Source of the DNA: Calditrichia bacterium
GTDB taxonomy: Bacteria > Calditrichota > Calditrichia > RBG-13-44-9 > J075
Assembly: GCA_050633245.1 (NCBI GenBank)
Contig: JBOEGD010000008.1
Coordinates: forward strand, 1-64,000
DNA: 64,000 nucleotides
Reading direction: 5' to 3'
Position numbers and translations under genes: made by a program. Positions 15,764-64,000 of the stretch are shown piece after piece (the first letter of the stretch is position 1; every line of letters begins with the position of its first letter). Under the pieces are notes generated by a model. That model did not search any database. It had not been told where the DNA came from and was given only the letters and a program-made list of their open reading frames with translations.

Positions 15764-16004
15764 TTATCCAGTTCAAGTGAGGTTCTACGGGCTATTTGTA
15801 CAATAATTGAAAAGTCTGAAAGAAATTAAAGAAAAACCAAGTTGGATGTGCTCTTTGGAGCACAGACTTAATAGCATCAAGCAGCAACAGGCATGGTGTT
15901 CTTGATGCGTGGTATGTTGATATCCGTCTATTGTTTGAAGATTTTGTTATCTATCAAAAGATAGAGATTTTTAAGTTGAACTCCTATTATAATCTCCCGG
16001 GAAT

Positions 16005-16235
16005 TTAGCTTTGTGGCGGATCCCAGAGCTCTTCTTCAAGACCATCATCTTTTTTAGAGAGCTTGGAAATTGTTTTTTCAGCTTCGTTAAGACGACTGTT
16101 GCATGTCTCTACCAGCCTCATACCTTCCTCAAAGAGTTTCAAAGCCTCATCGAGAGGAACGGATTCGCCTTCGAGTAATCTGGCAATTTCTTCAAGACGT
16201 CCAAAGGACTTTTCAAAGGACGGTGCTTTACTCAT
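16005..16235 (-). CDS. xseB: Exodeoxyribonuclease VII small subunit
   Basis: SFEKSFGRLEEIARLLE...LDEALKLFEEG; overlaps xseA end; start set at MSK. Confidence 0.93.
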   Translation of the reverse strand: MSKAPSFEKSFGRLEEIARLLEGESVPLDEALKLFEEGMRLVETCNSRLNEAEKTISKLSKKDDGLEEELWDPPQS

Positions 16236-54572: not shown

Positions 54573-54656
54573 GCCGAGGTGGCGGAATTGGTAGACGCGC
54601 TAGGTTCAGGACCTAGTGGGCTTCGGCCCGTGGAGGTTCGAGTCCTCTTCTCGGCA
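54573..54656 (+). tRNA. tRNA-Leu (anticodon CAG), CCA not encoded
   Basis: Acceptor GCCGAGG/TCTCGGC-A, D-loop TTGGTAGAC, anticodon stem CTAGG-TTCAGGA-CCTAG, long variable arm, GGTTCGAGTCC. Confidence 0.96.
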
Positions 54657-54676
54657 CGACAGTATAAGCACTTTAT

Positions 54677-54968: not shown

Positions 54969-56369
54969 ATGCCTGAGAAAACCAAGATTCTTATTCTTGC
55001 TGCAAACCCAAAAGACACGACACCTCTGAGGTTGGATGAAGAAATACGCGAAATTGATACTGGCCTTCGCCGCTCTAAACACAGGGATGATTTTGAGTTA
55101 GTAAAGAAACATGCTTTGCGCAATGAAGATTTGCGCCAGGCACTGTTGGATGAAGAGCCTAATATCATTCATTTTTGTGGGCATGGTTATAACTCTGAGA
55201 CTGGCGGAAACGGCATTGTCCTGGTTGATGATGATGGTCTGAGCTATCCTATAGATAGCTCAGCAATAGCGGATCTTATAGGCATTTTGTCAGATGGAAT
55301 TCACTGCGTGGTACTCAATGCCTGCTACACTGTGAAGCAGGCCGCTGCAATTGGGGAACACATTCCCTACGTTGTAGGAATGCGTGAGGAAATTAATGAC
55401 GAGATCGGCATCGAGTTCTCAAAAGGGTTCTACGATGGCATTGGTGCTGGAAAAACAGTAGAAACCTCTTTTAAGTTGGGGTGCAATGCTATCGATATGA
55501 AAAATCTGTCTGATGAATTGTTACCGATTTTGAAGAAACAGCCCGGCGCATCAGATCATGTATTTGTCCCGCGACATCCCGAAGAACCTTCTACAGAAAC
55601 CAGCGAGCAGCAACCCTCTATTCATCAAGAAGCAGATGTAACCGACGGCAGTAGCTATCAGGCAGGTGGCGATATCAATATTCATCATGGAGAGAATGAC
55701 AAACCGGAGGGGACTCGTAACAAAATTGCAGTGTGGTTGGGAATTGTCGCGGCGATAGCAACGATAATAACCTTTGTTTTCGACATTCCTGGAAGAACTG
55801 GATTAATATCAATATCGAATCAAGCGAACACAGTAACTGTTTTGGTGCATGGAGAAAAAGGCAAAGATCAGCTGATATTGCCAAACCGGGGTAAGGTAAA
55901 ACTTATTTACGGAGACGCCATCGTCTCCGAGCAGATCAACGACAAAGGTGAGGCGACATTCAAGCAAGTGCCGGAAAACTTTTTTACGCAGGGTTCAAGG
56001 GTAGAAGTTTTATTTCATGATCCAAAGGGCGAGCCCTATCGAGCTATTTATCATGATTCACTCTATCAATTAACGAAGGGGGAATACGTCTCGTTAGTTG
56101 TTAAACTCTTCGGTTTGGGTGAAATCAGAGGTATTGTGAGAGATTTTGAAACAGGAGACCCAATTGAAGGTGTACGGCTTAGCATTCAAGATGTGGTTAC
56201 TTTTTCAAATGAGTTTGGAGAATATGCATTTACCCTTCCTCCTGATAAGCAAAGAAAACTTCAAACAATAAGAGCCACCAAAGCAGGGTATACTTTTTTT
56301 GAGCTTGATAGTATTCCACCACAAACCGGACGTGAAATCCCCATTCTGATGAAGCCAAAAGAGAATTAG
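54969..56369 (+). CDS. CHAT (caspase-like) protease + TM + extracytoplasmic beta-sandwich/carboxypeptidase-regulatory-like domains
   Basis: ILILAANP..T..LRLDEE, HFCGHG (His), VVLNAC (Cys), FSKGFY; TM IAVWLGIVAAIATIITFVF; G.VRD.ETG.PIEG ectodomain. Confidence 0.88.
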   Translation: MPEKTKILILAANPKDTTPLRLDEEIREIDTGLRRSKHRDDFELVKKHALRNEDLRQALLDEEPNIIHFCGHGYNSETGGNGIVLVDDDGLSYPIDSSAIADLIGILSDGIHCVVLNACYTVKQAAAIGEHIPYVVGMREEINDEIGIEFSKGFYDGIGAGKTVETSFKLGCNAIDMKNLSDELLPILKKQPGASDHVFVPRHPEEPSTETSEQQPSIHQEADVTDGSSYQAGGDINIHHGENDKPEGTRNKIAVWLGIVAAIATIITFVFDIPGRTGLISISNQANTVTVLVHGEKGKDQLILPNRGKVKLIYGDAIVSEQINDKGEATFKQVPENFFTQGSRVEVLFHDPKGEPYRAIYHDSLYQLTKGEYVSLVVKLFGLGEIRGIVRDFETGDPIEGVRLSIQDVVTFSNEFGEYAFTLPPDKQRKLQTIRATKAGYTFFELDSIPPQTGREIPILMKPKEN

Positions 56370-56371
56370 CA

Positions 56372-58633
56372 ATGAAGTGCCCCATAACAGCTCTTATACT
56401 ATTATTACTGACTATTTGCGCTTACTCTCAGCAGATTACGCTCAACGGACAAGTCTCGATTCATAATAGTCAATACCGGACTGGTAGCATTCAATATGTT
56501 ACAGATGCCTACGTCAGTGCTCCTTTCACAACACCGGATGCTACCGATGAGGAAGGGCGCTTCGGATTGGAGTTCGTGGGAATCGACGCCGGAAGCTCAG
56601 TTAAAGTGAATGTAGAAAGAGCTAACTTAGAAGTCGTTAATGCCTACGATTTGCTGAAAGTAATATTGGGCAGAAAACCTCTATTGCGGGTCTTTCTGGC
56701 TGAAAAGGGACGCCTGGAACAAGCTCAGACAGAACTGTATAAGATTAGCAGAGAAGCGCTTTTTGCCAGGAAAAATGCCTTGATTGCCCAACTGCAAGCC
56801 AGCGAATCGGAAAGCAGATCTGTCATTTCTATGCTTGAAGAACGTTTCGGGCAAAAGATCGCCAACCGCTTTGAAGCTGAAGAGATTTTAAACAGTAAAA
56901 TAGAATCATTGGAAAAACGTCTTCCTGAATTTGCCCAGGAATTGGCTTCAGTCAATCTGGACTTCGCATCTGAAATGTATCGGGAATCATATGAGCATTA
57001 CAAGAATGGCGATATTGAACAGGCCATTGCTGTGTTGGATGACGCAAAGTTAGACGAATCTTATCAGGATGCTTTGAGCACCATTCGTGAAGGTGAAAAA
57101 CTGGAGACTATCGGTAAGGAACTTCAGGAAAAGGGGCTCCTGCAAATTGAACAAATTGTTGATAGTTATAAACTGAAAGCAGAGTCCTTCCGTCTGCTCA
57201 TCCAGTATAGAAGTGCAGCGGAAGTATATGAGAAGATCATTCGAATGCTGAAAGAGAGCAAGCCGGAAGAGGATATAGAGCTCGCTGACGTCTATGAAAA
57301 TACAAGCATCTTGTATTTCTTTTTAGGGGCATATACCAAAGCTTATCTATATAGCCAAAGGAATGTGAGCGTTAAAGAAAACCTGTTTGATGCAGGTGAC
57401 GAAAGGCTTACTGTAGCATATAACGTCCAAGGGCTCGTGCTCCAGGCTCAGGGCAACTACAGTGAGGCTGAGCCCTTCTACCGACGCGCATTAAAGATAA
57501 GTGAGTCACAGCTTGGCCCTGAGCATCCGGAGGTTGCCGCCTCTTTGAACAACCTGGCAGCATTGCTACAGGCTCAAGGTCATTATAGCGAAGCCAAGCC
57601 CTTCTACCAACGGGCATTAAAGATAAGAGAGTCGCAGCTGGGCCCTGAGCATCCTTCTGTGGCCGCCTCACTGAACAACCTGGCGGGATTGCTCCAAGCT
57701 CAGGGCAATTATATCGAAGCCGAGCCCCTCTACCGACGCGCGCTTAAGATTATAGAAGTGCAGCTGGGCCTTGAGCATCCTGAGGTTGCCACCTCTTTGA
57801 ACAATTTGGCGCTTTTGCTAGAGTTGCAGCGCCGTTACATTGAAGCCGAGCCTCTCTATCAACGCGCCTTAAGGATTGTCGAGACACAGCTAGGTCGCGA
57901 GAATCCTAAAGTAGCCACTACTTTGAACAATTTGGCGCTTTTGCGAGAGGCTCAGGGCCGTTACATCGAAGCTGAGCCTCTCTATCAACGCGCCTTAAAG
58001 ATTTATAAGTCGCAGCTGGGCCCTGAACACCCCAATGTAGCTAGTGCATTAAACAATTTAGCGTTTTTACTAGAGGCTCAGGGCCGTTACATCGAAGCTG
58101 AGCCCCTCTACAAACGCGCACTAAATATCAAAGAGTCGCAGCTGGGCCGTGAGCATCCTTCTGTGGCTACCTCACTGAACAACCTGTCGGGGTTGTTACT
58201 GGCTCAAAGCAATTATATTGAGGCCGAGCCCCTCTTACAACGCTCGCTAAAGATTTTTGAGTTACAGCTTGGCCCCGAGCATCCGGATACGAAAGTTGTA
58301 AGGTATAAAATTGAAGAACTTAAACGACTAAAATCCGATAACGAATATAAAATGCGTCTAAGCATAATTGTCACAAAAACCGAAACGATGGCAGAACAGG
58401 TACTACAAAAGCTCAAAAATGGCATCAGCTTTGCGCAATTGGCGCGAGAATTTTCAATTGGACCAGGAAAAGAACAGGGTGGTGATATTGGCTTTATTGC
58501 ACCAGAGGATATGTCCGGGGATTTGAAAAAAGCTGTTACAGAGCTAGAGGTAGGGCAATATAGTGATATTATTAAGACAGAACACGGCTACTGTATAATT
58601 GCGAAAACTATAGGTGTTTCGATCTCTAATTAA
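56372..58633 (+). CDS. Secreted TPR protein 1: conserved N-terminal module, 7 kinesin-light-chain-type 42-aa TPRs, C-terminal parvulin PPIase domain
   Basis: Signal peptide; LNNLA...AEPLY.RAL.I.E.QLG.EHP repeats; FAQLAREFS...GGDIG...GQYSDIIKTEHGY. Confidence 0.88.
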   Translation: MKCPITALILLLLTICAYSQQITLNGQVSIHNSQYRTGSIQYVTDAYVSAPFTTPDATDEEGRFGLEFVGIDAGSSVKVNVERANLEVVNAYDLLKVILGRKPLLRVFLAEKGRLEQAQTELYKISREALFARKNALIAQLQASESESRSVISMLEERFGQKIANRFEAEEILNSKIESLEKRLPEFAQELASVNLDFASEMYRESYEHYKNGDIEQAIAVLDDAKLDESYQDALSTIREGEKLETIGKELQEKGLLQIEQIVDSYKLKAESFRLLIQYRSAAEVYEKIIRMLKESKPEEDIELADVYENTSILYFFLGAYTKAYLYSQRNVSVKENLFDAGDERLTVAYNVQGLVLQAQGNYSEAEPFYRRALKISESQLGPEHPEVAASLNNLAALLQAQGHYSEAKPFYQRALKIRESQLGPEHPSVAASLNNLAGLLQAQGNYIEAEPLYRRALKIIEVQLGLEHPEVATSLNNLALLLELQRRYIEAEPLYQRALRIVETQLGRENPKVATTLNNLALLREAQGRYIEAEPLYQRALKIYKSQLGPEHPNVASALNNLAFLLEAQGRYIEAEPLYKRALNIKESQLGREHPSVATSLNNLSGLLLAQSNYIEAEPLLQRSLKIFELQLGPEHPDTKVVRYKIEELKRLKSDNEYKMRLSIIVTKTETMAEQVLQKLKNGISFAQLAREFSIGPGKEQGGDIGFIAPEDMSGDLKKAVTELEVGQYSDIIKTEHGYCIIAKTIGVSISN

Positions 58634-58739
58634 TAAGAGTAATGGTTCTATTAGAAATAAATGTAGTGTAAAAGAGTATGGGGAGTTTGCATTCACAATG
58701 TTCCAATGGAAGCTTGATAAACTTTAAGGAAAAATAGGA

Positions 58740-60848
58740 ATGAAGTACCTCACACTTTTGATGACAATTGTGATATTGAGCTTATGTGCAAGTTCTCAGC
58801 AAATTACGCTCAATGGACAAGTCTCGATTCATAATAGTCAATACAACACTGGTAACATTCAATATGTCGCAGATGCCTATGTCAGCGCTCCTTTCACCAC
58901 ACCAGATAATACAGATAACGAAGGGCGTTTTGCATTAGAGTTCGTGGGAGTTAATTCAGGTACTGCTTTAAAAATATCCGTTGAAAAAGCTGGTTTAGAA
59001 GTCGTGAATGCCTATGATTTGCTGAAGGTGATCCTTGGTCGTAATCCTTTGTTACGTGTATACCTCGCAGAAAAAGGACGACTAGCAGAAGCGCAAACAG
59101 AACTTTATCAGATTAGCAAAGAAGCCCTCTTTTCCCGAAAGGATGAGCTGATAGCTGAACTTCGAGCCAGTGAAGCTGAAAGCAGAGCTGTCATCTCTAT
59201 GCTTGAAGAACATTTCGGCCAAAAGATTGCCAACCGATTTGAAGCTGAAGACTTATTGAACGACAAAATCAAATCTTTAGAAAAGCGCCTTCCCGAGTTC
59301 GCTCAAGAGCTAGCAACAGTGAATTTGGATTTTGCATCTGAACTTTACCTGCGAGCGTACGAGCATTACAAGAAAGGTGAGATCGAAGAAGCCATTGTCG
59401 TCTTAGATAACGCTAAGTTGGAAACATCTTATAAAACCGCATTAGATACTCGACAAGAGGCACTGAGATTAGACTCTATTGTGGTAGATCTCAAGGAGAA
59501 GAGTGAACTACAAATAACCCAAATTGTTGATGGTTATAAGTTGAAGGCAGAGTCATTCTACCTGCTTGTTCAATATCAAAATGCCGAAGTAACTTATAAA
59601 AGAATTATTGGGATACTGCAAGAAACCAGGCATAAGGAAGACCTGGAACTTGCTGATATTTATGAAAAGTTAGCGGAGCTCTATCTCGAATTAGGGGAAT
59701 ATGCGAGTGGAATTGCTTATGTAAAAAAAGCTGTAAACATTATAGAGCATCTTTTGGAATCAAATGATTCCAAGGCCGCTAATTCCTATAATTTATATGC
59801 GGAATTGCTTCGTGCTCAAGGCAAATATGATGAAGCTGAACCTCTCTATTATAGTGCAATCGAAATTGGTGAAATGGCATTAGGAAAAGATCACCTCCAA
59901 GTAGCAGATTATATCAATAATTTAGGTTCATTGATTCAGGCTAAGGGCAATTACAGTGAGGCTGAACCTCTTTATCTAAGAGCGATAGAGATTGGAGAAA
60001 AAAATCTAGGAGAAAATCATCGCCAATTAACAGAGTGGTTAAATAACTTGGCTCTTTTATTTAATCTTCAAGGCAAATACGCTGAAGCAGAACCTCTTTT
60101 CCTCAGAGTGATTGATATCGGGGAGATGTCTTATGGCGAAAATCACCCGGCAATAGCAACCTACGTTAATAACTTAGCCCTATTGTATAAAACTCTAGGT
60201 AGATACGCTGAGGCAGAACCTCTTTACCGCAGTGCGATAAAGATTACTGAGAGGGCTCTGGGCAAAAACCATCCAAGAGTAGCAACATGGGTAAGCAATC
60301 TCGGAGCATTGTTTTGGTCTCAAGGTAAGTATAGTGAAGCAGAACCCCTATTCCTCAGAGCAATAAAAATTGGGGAAATTACGTTAGGTGAAAATCACCC
60401 AGAAGTAGCAACTTGGATAAATAATTTAGGGGCAGTGTTTCACACTCAGGGCAAGTATGAAGAGGCAGAACCTCTCTATCGTCGAGCGATAGGAATTGGG
60501 GAAATGACATTAGGTAAGGAGCACCCCAAAGTAGCAACTTGGGTAAACAATTTAGGAAATGTCTTTGAGGCCCAGGGCAAGTATGGCGAGGCTGAATCCC
60601 ACTACCGCAGCGCAATCGAAATCGGCGAAGTTAGCTTAGGTGAAAATCACTCTAGAGTTGCATTATGGTTAACAAATTTAGCGGGATTATTTGGTAAACA
60701 GGGTGAGTATGGCGAGGCAGTGCCCCTTTGCCGCAGGGCGTTGAAAATTTTTGAATCATCGTTAGGAACGGAGCATTCTAAAACGATAAAAACGCGCGCA
60801 CTTCTTGAAAAGCTGGAAGTTGAAATGAAGCCCTCTAGTAAAAATTAA
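58740..60848 (+). CDS. Secreted TPR protein 2: same N-terminal module, 8 divergent TPRs
   Basis: Signal peptide; VATW.NNLG...AEPL..RAI.IGE..LGENHP repeats. Confidence 0.88.
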   Translation: MKYLTLLMTIVILSLCASSQQITLNGQVSIHNSQYNTGNIQYVADAYVSAPFTTPDNTDNEGRFALEFVGVNSGTALKISVEKAGLEVVNAYDLLKVILGRNPLLRVYLAEKGRLAEAQTELYQISKEALFSRKDELIAELRASEAESRAVISMLEEHFGQKIANRFEAEDLLNDKIKSLEKRLPEFAQELATVNLDFASELYLRAYEHYKKGEIEEAIVVLDNAKLETSYKTALDTRQEALRLDSIVVDLKEKSELQITQIVDGYKLKAESFYLLVQYQNAEVTYKRIIGILQETRHKEDLELADIYEKLAELYLELGEYASGIAYVKKAVNIIEHLLESNDSKAANSYNLYAELLRAQGKYDEAEPLYYSAIEIGEMALGKDHLQVADYINNLGSLIQAKGNYSEAEPLYLRAIEIGEKNLGENHRQLTEWLNNLALLFNLQGKYAEAEPLFLRVIDIGEMSYGENHPAIATYVNNLALLYKTLGRYAEAEPLYRSAIKITERALGKNHPRVATWVSNLGALFWSQGKYSEAEPLFLRAIKIGEITLGENHPEVATWINNLGAVFHTQGKYEEAEPLYRRAIGIGEMTLGKEHPKVATWVNNLGNVFEAQGKYGEAESHYRSAIEIGEVSLGENHSRVALWLTNLAGLFGKQGEYGEAVPLCRRALKIFESSLGTEHSKTIKTRALLEKLEVEMKPSSKN

Positions 60849-60951
60849 ATAGATAAATAGTATATAAAGTTTAGCTAATTATAAGAATACAAATTCGATT
60901 TTTTTGCATGATTACTGCTAAACTCTGAGAAGACTCTAAGGGCAAATAGGT

Positions 60952-63186
60952 ATGAAATATCTCATAACTTTTATGATTATGCTCATAATGAGCTTTTGTG
61001 CCCACTCTCAGCAAATCACACTCAATGGACAAGTCTTAATTCATAACAGTAAATATAAAACTGGTAAGATTGTATACGTTAAGGATGCCTATGTTAGCGC
61101 TCCTTTTACAACACCAGATAATACAGATGATACTGGGCGTTTTGCATTGGAGTTTGTGGGAGTTAATTCCGGAACCGCTTTAAAAATATCTGTTGAAAAA
61201 GCTGGTTTAGAGGTCGTGAATGCCTACGATTTGCTGAATGTGATTCTTGGTCGTAAACCGCTCATGCGCGTTTACCTCGCCGAAAAAGGACGGCTTGCAG
61301 AGGCACAGACAGAACTTTATCAAATTAGCAAAGAAGCACTGCTATCCCGTAAGGATGCTCTTATAGCTCAACTTCGAGCAAGTGAAGCGGAGAGCAAGTC
61401 AGTCGTCTCCATGCTCGAAGAACATTTTGGACAAAAGATTACCAACCGATATGAAGCCGAAGACTTGTTGAATAGTAAAATAGAGTCATTAGAAAAACGC
61501 CTCCCAGAATTCGCTCAGGAACTAGCGACAGTGAATTTGGACTTTGCATCCGAGCTTTACCGGGAAGCCTACGAGCACTACACGAATGGCGATATAGAAA
61601 AAGCCATTGCGGTATTGGACGACGCGAAGTTGGACGAGTCTTATCAAGATGCTTTGAGTACCAGTCGTGAAGGTGAAAAGCTGGAGACAATCGGTAAGGA
61701 ACTGCAGGAAAAGGGGCTCTTGCAGATTGAACAGATTGTAAATAGCTACAAGCTTAAAGCAGAGTCTTTCTATCTGCTTATTCAATACCGAAATGCTGCA
61801 GATGTTTATGAAAAGATCATTCGAATTCTGGAAGAGAGCAAAACAGAAGCCGATATTGAACTCGCTAACGCCTACGAAACCATAACAGGTATTTATTACG
61901 ATTTAGGGAAATATGTTGCCGCTCATTCCTACGCGCAAAAGAATGTGGCTATCAAAGATCGTCTTCTTGAAACAAATGACCCCGATCTCGCCACTGCTTT
62001 AAACAACCTGGCGCTCTTGCTAAAGACTCAGGGCAAATACGCGGAGGCTGAACCGCTCTTCCGCCGGGCGCTGCAGATAAGAGAGTCGCAGCTGGGTGCG
62101 GAGCATCCGTCTATGGCTACCTCACTGAACAACCTTGCAGGACTGCTACGTGAGCAGGGTAAGTATACGGAAGCCGAGCCTCTATACCGCCGGGTGCTGC
62201 AGATAAGAGAGTCGCAGCTGGGTGCGGAGCATCCGGATGTTGCGGGCAGTTTAAACAACCTGGCGGGATTGCTACAGGATCAGGGCAAGTATGCGCAAGC
62301 CGAACCGCTCTTCCGCCGGGCGCTGAAGATTTATGAGTCGCAACTGGGCGCGAAGCATCCGGATGTTGCGGGCAGTTTAAACAACCTGGCGGCATTGCTA
62401 CGGGCTCAGGGCAAATACGCGGAGGCTGAACCGCTCTTCCGCCGGGCGCTGCAGATAAGAGAGTCGCAGCTGGGTGCGGAGCATCCGTCTATGGCTACCT
62501 CACTGAACAACCTTGCAGGACTGCTACGTGAGCAGGGTAAGTATACGGAAGCCGAGCCTCTATACCGCCGGGCACTGCAAATTGATGAAGCTGCTTTGGG
62601 CAGGGATCATCCTGGTGTAGCGACGGACTTAAACAGCCTGGCGCTCTTACTAAGGGAACAGGGCGAGTACGTGCAAGCCGAGCCGCTACACCGCAGGGTA
62701 CTGCAGATATTAAGGAAGCAGTTGGGCTCGGAACATCCGAATGTTGCTGGCTCAATGATTAACCTGGCAGGACTGCTACATGAGCAGGGTAAGTATGCGG
62801 AAGCCGAGCCTCTATACCGCCAGGCACTCGAGATTTATGAGAGGCAGTTGGGCCCGGATCATCCGTCTGTGGCTACCTCACTGAACAACCTGGCGCTCTT
62901 GCTACAGGCTCAGGGCAAATATAGCGAAGCTGAGCCGCTCCACCGTCGGGCACTTAAGATCAAGGAGACGCAGTTGGGCCCGATGCATCCAGATGTGGCT
63001 ACCTCACTTAACAACTTGGCAGGCTTACTCCAGGATCAGAGCAGGTATGTGGAAGCCGAGCCGCTATTTCGAAGAGCTTTGCTTATACGAGAAACGAAGT
63101 TAGGAGCGGAACATCCAAGGACTAAAACGGCACGGGCCAACCTCGATAACTTTCTCATGAAAAAAAGATCTTCTCTCCGAGACTAA
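60952..63186 (+). CDS. Secreted TPR protein 3: same N-terminal module, 9 highly similar TPRs
   Basis: Signal peptide; near-identical 126-bp repeat units. Confidence 0.88.
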   Translation: MKYLITFMIMLIMSFCAHSQQITLNGQVLIHNSKYKTGKIVYVKDAYVSAPFTTPDNTDDTGRFALEFVGVNSGTALKISVEKAGLEVVNAYDLLNVILGRKPLMRVYLAEKGRLAEAQTELYQISKEALLSRKDALIAQLRASEAESKSVVSMLEEHFGQKITNRYEAEDLLNSKIESLEKRLPEFAQELATVNLDFASELYREAYEHYTNGDIEKAIAVLDDAKLDESYQDALSTSREGEKLETIGKELQEKGLLQIEQIVNSYKLKAESFYLLIQYRNAADVYEKIIRILEESKTEADIELANAYETITGIYYDLGKYVAAHSYAQKNVAIKDRLLETNDPDLATALNNLALLLKTQGKYAEAEPLFRRALQIRESQLGAEHPSMATSLNNLAGLLREQGKYTEAEPLYRRVLQIRESQLGAEHPDVAGSLNNLAGLLQDQGKYAQAEPLFRRALKIYESQLGAKHPDVAGSLNNLAALLRAQGKYAEAEPLFRRALQIRESQLGAEHPSMATSLNNLAGLLREQGKYTEAEPLYRRALQIDEAALGRDHPGVATDLNSLALLLREQGEYVQAEPLHRRVLQILRKQLGSEHPNVAGSMINLAGLLHEQGKYAEAEPLYRQALEIYERQLGPDHPSVATSLNNLALLLQAQGKYSEAEPLHRRALKIKETQLGPMHPDVATSLNNLAGLLQDQSRYVEAEPLFRRALLIRETKLGAEHPRTKTARANLDNFLMKKRSSLRD
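62027..62572 (+). repeat. Exact 168-bp direct repeat within the TPR array
   Basis: 62027-62194 identical by eye to 62405-62572; offset 378 = 3 x 126. Confidence 0.85.
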
Positions 63187-63373
63187 TAAATCAATATTTA
63201 CAATAAACAAAGCGAGTGTTGTCCTGTCTTTGTTTAACCCAAACCTACTTTAGTTTGCAATCCCGTTATTCTTTCCTATATTTTTAACATCCCATCTATA
63301 AATATGCAAAGCCACGTCTGAGAGTTGGTCTCTCTAGTAGTGCTCAAGCAGAAAAACCAGAAGGCAATTTGCA

Positions 63374-64000
63374 ATGATTGATATTCAAAATTGGTGGAAA
63401 TACGTAACAGGTATTGGTGTTGTCGTTAGTATCGTTGCTGGTCTTGCAGCAATAAGCGGCTACAGTCTTAAGGACCTATTCGCTTCGTCGCAAGTCGATT
63501 CTAATATTGTAACTGTTCTGGTACATAGTGAGGGCGGGAAAGATGAATTAATTCTTCCTAGCAGAGGAATTGTAAAACTCATCTATGGCGATGCAATTAT
63601 TCCAGAACAGATAAACAATGAGGGAGAAGCAACGTTTAAGCAAATACCCGATCACTTTTTTAATTCCAACGCAAAAGTAGAGATCCTTTTTGATGACCCG
63701 AAGGGTGAGCCGTATCGAGCAGTAAATCATGATTCAGCTTATCAACTTATAAAGGGACAATATATCTCGCTACCTGTTAAGCTCTATGGTTTAGAGGAAA
63801 TAAATGGTATTGTAAAAGATTTTGAAACAGGTGAACCTATAAAAGGGGCGCGTGTTAGTGTGCAACGTGAAGAAACGTATTCAGATGAATATGGAGAATA
63901 TACTTTATCGATTCCCCCAGAGAGACAAAAACAGTTTCAATCGATACGAGCCTCAGCGGTTGGTTATCATTTGTTTGAAAAGGACAGTATTCCTCCTCAG
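63374..64000 (+). CDS. TM + ectodomain paralogue of the CHAT protein lacking the protease domain (runs off the window end)
   Basis: Manual translation MIDIQNWWKYVTGIGVVVSIVAGLAAISG...VTVLVHSEGGKDELILPSRGIVKLIYGDAII.EQIN...DPKGEPYRA...DSIPPQ, colinear with the C-terminal half of 54969..56369. Confidence 0.85.
   Translation, partial: MIDIQNWWKYVTGIGVVVSIVAGLAAISGYSLKDLFASSQVDSNIVTVLVHSEGGKDELILPSRGIVKLIYGDAIIPEQINNEGEATFKQIPDHFFNSNAKVEILFDDPKGEPYRAVNHDSAYQLIKGQYISLPVKLYGLEEINGIVKDFETGEPIKGARVSVQREETYSDEYGEYTLSIPPERQKQFQSIRASAVGYHLFEKDSIPPQ

Follow-up and report, generated by a model that had tools for sequence, protein, structure and literature searches.

A Candidate Two-Gene Transmembrane Conflict System with Exported TPR Proteins in a Calditrichia Genome

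Can a bacterium keep the sensor and the effector of a death-like signaling pathway on opposite sides of its membrane? The question is raised by a run of genes at the downstream end of the 64,000-nucleotide stretch analyzed here (hereafter, the window), which comprises the first 64,000 bases of the 64,443-base contig JBOEGD010000008.1 (contig C8 of the host genome) of a Calditrichia bacterium (assembly GCA_050633245.1). One gene encodes a predicted membrane receptor with a caspase-like CHAT head, and the genes behind it encode tetratricopeptide repeat (TPR) proteins with predicted signal peptides. A preliminary description of the window had proposed that the TPR proteins bind a ligand outside the cell, dock on the outer part of the receptor, and cluster it so that the protease is activated. 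Co-occurrence of the two families in other genomes, replacement of CHAT by other effectors, and export of the TPR proteins were examined, as that description had suggested, and all three results are in its favor. We consider it slightly better than an even chance that the locus is a transmembrane conflict system of two genes, whose periplasmic TPR sensors dock on the receptor and, by clustering it, activate its exchangeable heads.

A receptor gene and an exported TPR gene as a recurrent pair

The receptor gene (54969-56369, + strand; open reading frame [ORF] list, Pfam, PADLOC, and hydropathy) lies directly downstream of a tRNA-Leu(CAG) gene (54573-54657, + strand; ARAGORN), where the preliminary description had placed it, and encodes 466 amino acids (aa) comprising a CHAT head, a linker, a transmembrane (TM) helix, and an ectodomain. 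The head, residues 1 to 195 (54969-55553, + strand), matches the Pfam CHAT family (PF12770) over residues 25 to 164 at 35.8 bits against a cutoff of 24 and the PADLOC "chat" model at an E value of 2.3e-15. Both motifs pointed out earlier are intact, HFCGHG at residues 68 to 73 and LNAC at residues 116 to 119. Across an alignment of 17 CHAT heads and paralogues, H68 and C119 never vary, and at least 90% of the sequences retain G71 and H72. Judged from its sequence, the head is a CHAT caspase-fold cysteine protease with a candidate catalytic histidine (H68 or H72) and C119. Pfam gave no TPR match in the receptor chain.

The sole hydrophobic segment of the receptor above a Kyte-Doolittle value of 1.8 starts at residues 251 to 257, and the N terminus is not hydrophobic. 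The TM helix is placed at residues 253 to 271 (55725-55781, + strand), with a hydropathy peak of 2.58, the stretch KPEGTRNK just before it, and a positive-inside bias across the family. The C-terminal 195 aa form a conserved ectodomain (55782-56366, + strand; 646 representative homologues at an E value of ≤1e-3) that is modeled by AlphaFold2 with a pLDDT of 95.3. The beta-sandwich region anticipated at this end of the protein is present in the model, with two tandem sandwiches rather than the one expected. The second is of the CarboxypepD_reg/transthyretin-like type, and Foldseek matched the ectodomain to pilin and CNA-B type domains from Gram-positive bacteria and to the carboxypeptidase D domain 5aq0_B (TM-score by target, 0.84; root mean square deviation, 2.2).

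Downstream of the receptor gene lie tprA (753 aa; 56372-58633), tprB (702 aa; 58740-60848), and tprC (744 aa; 60952-63186), all on the + strand (ORF list, Pfam), each encoding a signal peptide, a constant N-terminal module (N-module), and a TPR array with 7, 8, and 9 exact 42-aa units, respectively. The constant region of about 280 aa is 71 to 81% identical between the paralogues and the TPR regions 47 to 60%, so that the sensor part varies. The tprA start codon at 56372 lies 2 nucleotides (nt) past the receptor stop, in agreement with the preliminary description. The same 2-nt junction recurs at the end of the contig, where a protease-less copy of the receptor gene (63374-64045, + strand, with the window stopping at 64000; ORF list, Pfam) is followed by a fourth gene for an N-module protein with a signal peptide, which the contig end breaks off after 132 codons (contig positions 64048-64443, + strand, past the window); its continuation was found on no other contig of the host genome. 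The three TPR proteins with their shared module and their repeat numbers had been read correctly, and what had been missed is this fourth gene and a parvulin domain in tprA. The protease-less copy, a 223-aa protein of 8 residues, TM helix, and ectodomain, had likewise been recognized, and its ectodomain is 64% identical to that of the CHAT receptor. It exceeds the CarboxypepD_reg (PF13620) cutoff of 32.3 bits, at 36.4 bits, and the first copy scores 26.7 bits, under the cutoff. This short form may be a co-receptor or a decoy, which is a speculation.

Whether the two gene types belong together was examined in 19 loci from other genomes, one genome per species, obtained by an ectodomain search from a 7-row alignment. 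Their hosts are Lewinellaceae, Saprospiraceae, Flavobacteriaceae, Aequorivita, Aquimarina, Crocinitomix, Ferruginibacter, Puia, and Rhodothermaceae. An N-module-TPR gene adjoins the ectodomain gene in 18 of the 19 loci, which bears out the co-occurrence suggested earlier, and in 17 of them it lies directly downstream on the same strand; at locus L022, two N-module genes are convergent and stand behind a second, broken ectodomain gene. Five of the 19 loci contain two N-module genes. The distance from stop to start is between -4 and +11 nt in 13 of 16 measured pairs, the remaining three being 60, 98, and 119 nt. When all ORFs within 10 kb were clustered, no third gene was common to more than 3 of the 19 loci. 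Because the pair recurs in 18 of 19 loci of other genomes, the pairing in the window is not due to chance. A distant paralogous pair in one of these genomes (L051), with an N-module 27.6% identical to that of the window, also keeps a short junction of 5 nt.

As for the broken gene at L022, an 82-aa ectodomain fragment (15950-16198, - strand) lies upstream of the two minus-strand N-module genes and is probably what is left of a second receptor gene facing the intact EAD11-headed one.

In tprA, the predicted Sec/signal peptidase I signal peptide (MKCPITALILLLLTICAYS, cleaved before QQ; 56372-56428, + strand; script heuristic, with the same pattern in 42 of 42 full-length family members) is followed by the constant N-module (56429-57271, + strand), which is modeled by AlphaFold2 as beta-sandwiches and a helical stalk, and by a variable array of 42-aa KLC-type TPR units (57272-58306, + strand; TPR_10/TPR_12, Pfam), the presumed ligand-binding part. 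The N-module search returned 43 homologues, 42 of them full length; Pfam has no family match in residues 1 to 310. The AlphaFold2 model of the module (pLDDT, 92.9) starts with a transthyretin-like sandwich resembling the carboxypeptidase D domain 5aq0_B and the periplasmic NTE domain of a SusC transporter (9hfj), and fold searches with its helical part gave only generic helical matches with Z scores under 9. The folds of both the ectodomain and the N-module are thus of a type found outside the cytoplasm. Conserved patches of the N-module read QQI.L.GQVSIHNS.Y.TG, at the mature N terminus, and LPEFAQ.LA..NLDFAS.

All 42 full-length N-module proteins have, by the same heuristic, a charged and hydrophobic N terminus ending in small-Q-[QEHSD], directly ahead of a conserved mature start, QQI.L.GQVSIHNS. 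The pattern fits Sec-dependent export and signal peptidase I cleavage with glutamine at +1, known as the "Q-rule" of Bacteroidetes (PMC5837995), and so speaks for the export of the TPR proteins proposed earlier. A lipoprotein reading of these proteins was considered and rejected, because the cysteine that lies close to this site is not conserved among family members.

Several features of individual TPR proteins were observed in addition. The C terminus of tprA, which is alone in this respect in the locus, carries a PPIC-type (parvulin) peptidyl-prolyl isomerase domain (residues 669 to 744; 58376-58603, + strand; Pfam Rotamase, E value of 3e-15) that might be a chaperone, a bait, or a cell wall contact, and three N-module relatives carry SH3_3 domains (precomputed Pfam). 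Both types of domain occur widely outside the cytoplasm. In tprC, the TPR array (62000-62999) has a G+C content of 57%, compared with about 40 to 45% elsewhere in the locus, and either the codon content of its Ala/Glu/Arg/Gly-rich repeats or a foreign origin of the array may be the cause; a blastn search of the host genome with TPR-array DNA gave only self-matches on C8. Models resembling the N-module (TM-score by query, 0.65 to 0.72 over about 250 residues) also precede LRR_5 and Sel1 repeats in Bacteroidota proteins from protein atlas clusters. Repeats other than TPRs may thus act as sensors on this constant module, a lead that comes from likeness of structure models, without an alignment.

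In the public annotation, the CHAT receptor (P0044, 445 aa) begins 21 codons after the ATG at 54969 (54969-55031). This deposited start is probably too late, because the extra KILILAANPKD aligns with the first strand of the CHAT domains of the paralogues.

Topology and exchangeable heads of the receptor family

An exhaustive search with the 195-aa ectodomain returned 646 representatives at an E value of ≤1e-3, 216 at ≤1e-10, and 50 at ≤1e-30. The ectodomain has a conserved patch, VTVLVHG..GKD..LPNRG.VKLIYGDA...IN..GEATFKQ. Among the listed single-match proteins of up to 600 aa, the ectodomain match is C terminal, with a median of 2 residues after it. A hydrophobic segment lies directly upstream of the ectodomain in 126 of 130 family members, and the 15 residues before this segment contain a mean of 3.41 lysines and arginines compared with 1.24 after it (more before than after in 106 of 121). 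By the positive-inside rule, this excess indicates a receptor topology with the N terminus inside and the C terminus outside, and the family thus sides with the earlier prediction of a cytoplasmic protease and an external ectodomain.

The preliminary description had asked whether other effectors replace CHAT in front of this ectodomain, and they do so widely. Heads were labeled with Pfam in 110 proteins, namely, 109 of 150 listed proteins and the window's own, leaving out fragments under 250 aa and multirepeat proteins over 600 aa. EAD11 (PF19964) is the head in 66, CHAT in 11, and TIR in 9; patatin, caspase C14, HEPN_STY4199, and a doubtful acyltransferase fragment account for 1 each, and 20 heads belong to no recognized family. 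In the 19 loci of the neighborhood set, Pfam assigned 2 CHAT, 3 TIR, and 5 EAD11 heads and found no head in 9. The heads are scattered over a careful maximum-likelihood tree built from 109 ectodomains, the bootstrap of which is not fully settled. For the 11 rows with CHAT, 11 changes are required, and well-supported branches force at least 5 of these; for the 9 rows with TIR, 8 changes are required, and at least 6 are forced in this way; a single origin of the CHAT or of the TIR head occurred in no bootstrap tree. The window's own CHAT head shares 43 to 52% identity with soluble CHAT paralogues encoded in the same genome (an EAD8-CHAT-TIR protein on contig C2 and a HetE-N-CHAT protein on contig C16), 39 to 40% with Bacteroidota EAD11-CHAT effectors, and mostly 19 to 22% (33% in one case) with the CHAT heads of other receptors. 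Since it is closer to the soluble paralogues and the EAD11-CHAT effectors than to most receptor CHAT heads, it was recruited separately.

Six of the 8 headless proteins examined among the 9 share a conserved N-terminal module with two TM segments (2-TM module). It occupies about the first 70 residues in L011, L017, L018, L020, L021, and L024, which represent different genera, and has a consensus near M.FI.EWG.IAG.AGLA.GVF.ILFRE.IRK.IF..L.KKQS. The 2-TM module may itself be a membrane-acting effector, although this is speculation. In the wider family, eight ectodomain proteins of about 500 to 530 aa (P0117, P0127, P0133, P0140, P0155, P0180, P0183, and P0192) carry heads of about 300 aa without a Pfam match; these heads have a hydrophobic, glycine-rich N terminus and may represent an unrecognized effector class. 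The public names of the family proteins are generic: "carboxypeptidase regulatory-like domain-containing," "CHAT domain-containing," "TIR domain-containing," "hypothetical," and "Effector-associated domain 11."

The most frequent head, EAD11, is an adaptor. Effector-associated domains (EADs) are small domains that Kaur et al. likened to death-fold domains, and in their logic a core sensor carries one copy and the effectors carry more (PMC7159879, PMC8195603). Among the supplements of the latter paper, in 32 of the 41 places naming EAD11 in file 6 and 2 of the 12 in file 4 that were covered, it appears only in Bacteroidetes proteins with LRR, AP-GTPase, and COR domains. One of the hosts of these proteins, Lewinellaceae bacterium SD302 (PMC8195603), also carries a receptor locus (L025). 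Five genomes with EAD11-headed receptors have 27, 9, 17, 11, and 17 EAD11 matches, and 14 control genomes have none. Nineteen proteins from the 20 best EAD11 loci were scanned for fusions. Six are of the receptor type (EAD11, TM, and ectodomain), and in the others EAD11 is joined to CHAT (3), SIR2 (2), TPR (2), TM only (2), TIR (1), caspase C14 (1), or PNP phosphorylase (1), or stands without another family (1). Since EAD11 is found on the receptor as well as on soluble effectors of the same genomes, the majority form of the receptor could plausibly recruit a pool of soluble death effectors. The same EAD is thus present on core component and effectors in the relatives but not in the window's own genome, in which a purpose-built hidden Markov model found no EAD11.

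One further protein is of note for its layout. A single chain of 811 aa (L050:2688-5123), located in the genome of L022 and about 16 kb from that locus, has EAD11 followed by a TM helix, a stretch of about 170 aa, and an array of KLC-type TPRs; it looks like a receptor and sensor fused and again puts KLC-type TPRs across the membrane from EAD11.

A clustering model and its alternatives

In the model that we favor, the receptor would be a single-pass inner membrane protein with its double beta-sandwich ectodomain in the periplasm and an exchangeable N-terminal head in the cytoplasm, the head being CHAT here and TIR, patatin, caspase, HEPN, the conserved 2-TM module, or, most often, EAD11 in relatives. 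The partner proteins would be exported by Sec and signal peptidase I, and several paralogues with different TPR arrays would serve one receptor. We infer that the constant N-module docks on the ectodomain and that the TPR array binds a periplasmic protein signal, for example, a protein of an invader or damaged envelope proteins; the oligomer so formed would cluster receptors and bring their cytoplasmic heads together, so that proximity would activate them and a defense response would follow. Proximity is a known mode of activation for caspase-like proteases, TIR domains, and death-like adaptors. In the EAD11-headed relatives, clustering would recruit soluble effectors fused to EAD11 (CHAT, TIR, SIR2, caspase, and phosphorylase), a step that the window's protein would short-circuit by having CHAT fused directly to the receptor. 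The interpretation as a conflict system is backed by the heads being standard death or defense effectors.

A number of observations speak against this model or limit what can be built on it. Nine of the 19 loci, and also the second copy in the window, have no enzymatic or adaptor head, and a cytoplasmic enzyme is therefore not required for the job of the core pair; these headless receptors are the main observation that simple clustering leaves unexplained. The 19 loci are close relatives of one another (49 to 67% ectodomain identity), with L018 and L019 being near duplicates and hence not independent, and L024 has no N-module gene in the 1.1 kb left on its short contig. A distant gene for an EAD11-TM-ectodomain-like protein (L052) has no N-module gene within 8 kb. 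A mirror-tree test of ectodomain against N-module distances gave a Mantel r of 0.34, with 39 of 2,000 permutations as high, a weak correlation that would be explicable by coinheritance alone and that we do not count as evidence of contact. The topology is a prediction from hydropathy and charge heuristics. Among the flanking genes on the visible (upstream) side of the locus there are no known defense genes, PADLOC-DB 2.0 gave only single-domain matches to the generic models "chat," "SAVED_CHAT" (E value, 1e-4), and "TPR," with no defined defense system among them, and none of 60 pattern matches in viral contigs encodes a relative.

Four other explanations have to be weighed against the clustering model. 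That the genes are neighbors by chance and do not work together is hardly credible, given that the pair is kept in 18 of 19 loci amid unrelated surrounding genes, with the tight junctions in 13 of 16, and is present twice on the window's contig. It is more conceivable, if still improbable, that the core pair is an envelope device, an inner membrane anchor for a periplasmic TPR scaffold that includes a prolyl isomerase, with a structural or chaperone role, to which the heads are secondary and of little consequence. Periplasmic TPR scaffolds and parvulins are indeed common in envelope biogenesis, the N-module sandwich is like the periplasmic NTE domain of SusC transporters, and the loci without an enzymatic head would find a ready explanation. 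A housekeeping factor, however, would not be confined to 1 of 86 genomes of the phylum, nor would it repeatedly gain death effectors or diversify its TPRs faster than its constant module, and the 2-TM module in 6 of the 8 "headless" forms examined is maybe an effector itself.

The remaining two explanations, which we consider about equally doubtful and somewhat less remote than an envelope device, accept the pair as a signaling module. In one, a guard or release model, the TPR proteins sit constantly on the ectodomain and hold the receptors apart or inactive; by binding, cleaving, or displacing these proteins, an invader would set the receptors loose to associate with one another and fire. The close translational coupling points to coproduction in stoichiometric amounts, and several TPR paralogues per receptor could be baits, with the parvulin of tprA as a decoy target; headless receptors, on the other hand, would have nothing to release, and sequence alone does not distinguish such a release from clustering induced by a ligand. 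In the other, the module is not antiviral and serves self/nonself recognition, developmental cell death, or an envelope stress response, sensing peptides, toxins, or surface proteins of neighbors or damaged periplasmic proteins. Many of the hosts are Lewinellaceae, Saprospiraceae, or Flavobacteriaceae, and published EAD networks are enriched in multicellular or social bacteria (PMC7159879, PMC8195603); the lack of relatives in the viral contigs points the same way, and the parvulin of tprA hints at surveillance of protein folding. Yet the repertoire of heads (TIR, patatin, HEPN, caspase, CHAT, and, via EAD11, SIR2) is that of abortive infection systems, and the patchy, transferable distribution is typical of defense genes.

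Setting, related systems, and meaning

The clustering model concerns a module that appears to be foreign to its host lineage. The ectodomain was found in a single genome out of 16 from the host's family and a single one out of 86 from its phylum, in both cases the window's own. All but one of the named close relatives of the host's SMC protein belong to Calditrichaceae, Calditrichia, or Calditrichaeota, the exception being labeled just "bacterium," and the named relatives of the module are all from Bacteroidota or Rhodothermaceae (one Rhodothermaceae metagenome-assembled genome). A Calditrichota host, module relatives in Bacteroidota and Rhodothermaceae, and a site next to a tRNA gene together indicate horizontal acquisition. 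The inserted module is bounded on the left by the tRNA-Leu gene; upstream of this gene are housekeeping genes (SMC, a sigma-54 response regulator, a histidine kinase, and a GDPD phosphodiesterase), and the six genes downstream of it are all on the + strand. A promoter and terminator scan of the locus found sites no more commonly than in shuffled sequence, and a search for sequencing runs covering 54969-58633 listed none. Elsewhere, the host genome is rich in Aravind-type conflict genes (contigs C2, C16, C18, and C22; L001, L002, L004, L005, and L006), which encode EAD8-CHAT-TIR, EAD8-Lcl_C, TIR-Lcl_C, and HetE-N-CHAT beside two NB-ARC-TPR genes, as well as iSTAND, FGE-sulfatase (FGS) proteins, NACHT-FGS, and a caspase-DUF7379 protein.

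Several described systems share parts of this design. The EAD conflict systems have the same effector vocabulary (CHAT/caspase, TIR, SIR2, patatin, HEPN, and PNP), the same adaptor logic, a patchy distribution, and lineage-specific expansions (PMC7159879, PMC8195603). Their published cores are cytoplasmic NTPases (MoxR-vWA, STAND, GAP1, and AP-GTPases), whereas the core described here is a TM-ectodomain receptor with an exported TPR protein and without an NTPase, for which Pfam found no domain in the five window genes. The supplementary text of PMC7159879, as far as it was available, names neither EAD11 nor CarboxypepD. The EACC1- and EACC2-caspase systems are likewise two-gene, membrane-associated systems with a caspase-fold protease, and some EACC2 caspase proteins have TM helices and an extracellular sensor such as CHASE2 (PMC7159879, PMC8195603). 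In contrast, sensing in the window locus would be split off into a separate exported TPR protein with multiple paralogues, paired with a dedicated ectodomain, and the Pfam scan of the five window proteins listed no EACC domain, the presence of the EACC2 model in the library being unconfirmed.

DdvA, an anti-sigma factor, is also a single-pass membrane protein with TPR and CHAT and acts as a dimer; in the proposal of its authors, it detects a phage-associated protein on the periplasmic side and passes the signal on into the cell (PMC11506125). In DdvA, TPR and CHAT are both periplasmic and part of one chain, and the output is the release of an extracytoplasmic function (ECF) sigma factor (PMC11506125), whereas here CHAT is predicted to be cytoplasmic (located before the TM helix, in a protein without a signal peptide), the TPRs are on separate exported proteins, and the output would be the effector itself. 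The cytoplasmic N-terminal zinc anti-sigma domain, periplasmic CHAT, and cognate ECF sigma gene by which DdvA-type systems are recognized are absent from the locus, in which Pfam found no anti-sigma or sigma-70 family match. Csx29 of the type III-E craspase, separase, and pairs of TIR and TPR proteins such as BcTir/BcTpr (bioRxiv 10.1101/2023.05.26.542521) similarly place a caspase-like or TIR effector under TPR control. Csx29, separase, and BcTir/BcTpr are wholly cytoplasmic, with the TPRs in the same chain or compartment as the effector, neither of which applies to the window locus as predicted, and Pfam found no cas-like domains in the locus or its upstream genes.

Metazoan death receptors are single-pass proteins with an extracellular ligand-binding part that signal by clustering, through homotypic death domain and death effector domain (DD/DED) adaptors, to caspase-8. 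The likeness to such signaling that was drawn loosely in the preliminary description gains from the EAD11 heads, since the outline is similar with EAD11 in place of DD/DED, and the headless copies are reminiscent of decoy receptors. The receptor parts are not homologous, and the likeness is to be taken as an analogy of design and not as family membership.

Like the preliminary description, which did not recognize the architecture, we found no account of a head-TM-ectodomain receptor with an exported TPR partner in the literature, nor a relevant paper for "EAD11," in a search whose scope stopped short of subscription journals and some supplements. In the available text, the TIR systems surveyed in bioRxiv 10.64898/2025.12.03.692087 do not include such a receptor and partner, and periplasmic lectin sensors diversified by diversity-generating retroelements are a nearby but different case (PMC10907252). 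The effectors and the EAD logic are thus known, and what appears to be new is the core of TM-ectodomain receptor and exported N-module-TPR protein, within the class of EAD and caspase/TIR conflict systems.

If the clustering model holds, its interest lies in where the sensing takes place. To our knowledge, almost all characterized bacterial immune sensors are cytoplasmic, and the detection of invaders in the periplasm is largely an open question. The authors of the DdvA study call such periplasmic signals the "dark matter" of defense (PMC11506125). The module offers a compact, testable case, with two gene types, a clear division between inside and outside, naturally swapped outputs, and natural controls in the form of headless receptors and several sensor paralogues. 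Cultured hosts are available among the loci in Aequorivita capsosiphonis DSM 23843, Aquimarina longa SW024, and Lewinellaceae bacterium SD302. The constant module with its variable repeats might also serve as a programmable scaffold for periplasmic binders.

A wider reading, which we put forward tentatively and at somewhat less than an even chance, is that these proteins are bacterial "death receptors," in which exported and diversifying TPR proteins (possibly also LRR or Sel1 proteins) sense the periplasm and, through clustering, set off caspase-like, TIR, lipase, or RNase heads, with EAD11 heads engaging a genomic pool of soluble effectors. Should activation be driven by clustering, the module would be the nearest bacterial counterpart of death receptor signaling and would link EAD networks to the cell envelope. 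If the death receptor reading is true, the EAD networks of Bacteroidota would have an extracytoplasmic input in addition to their published cytoplasmic LRR-GTPase sensors, and bacteria would have invented the receptor-adaptor-caspase design independently of animals.

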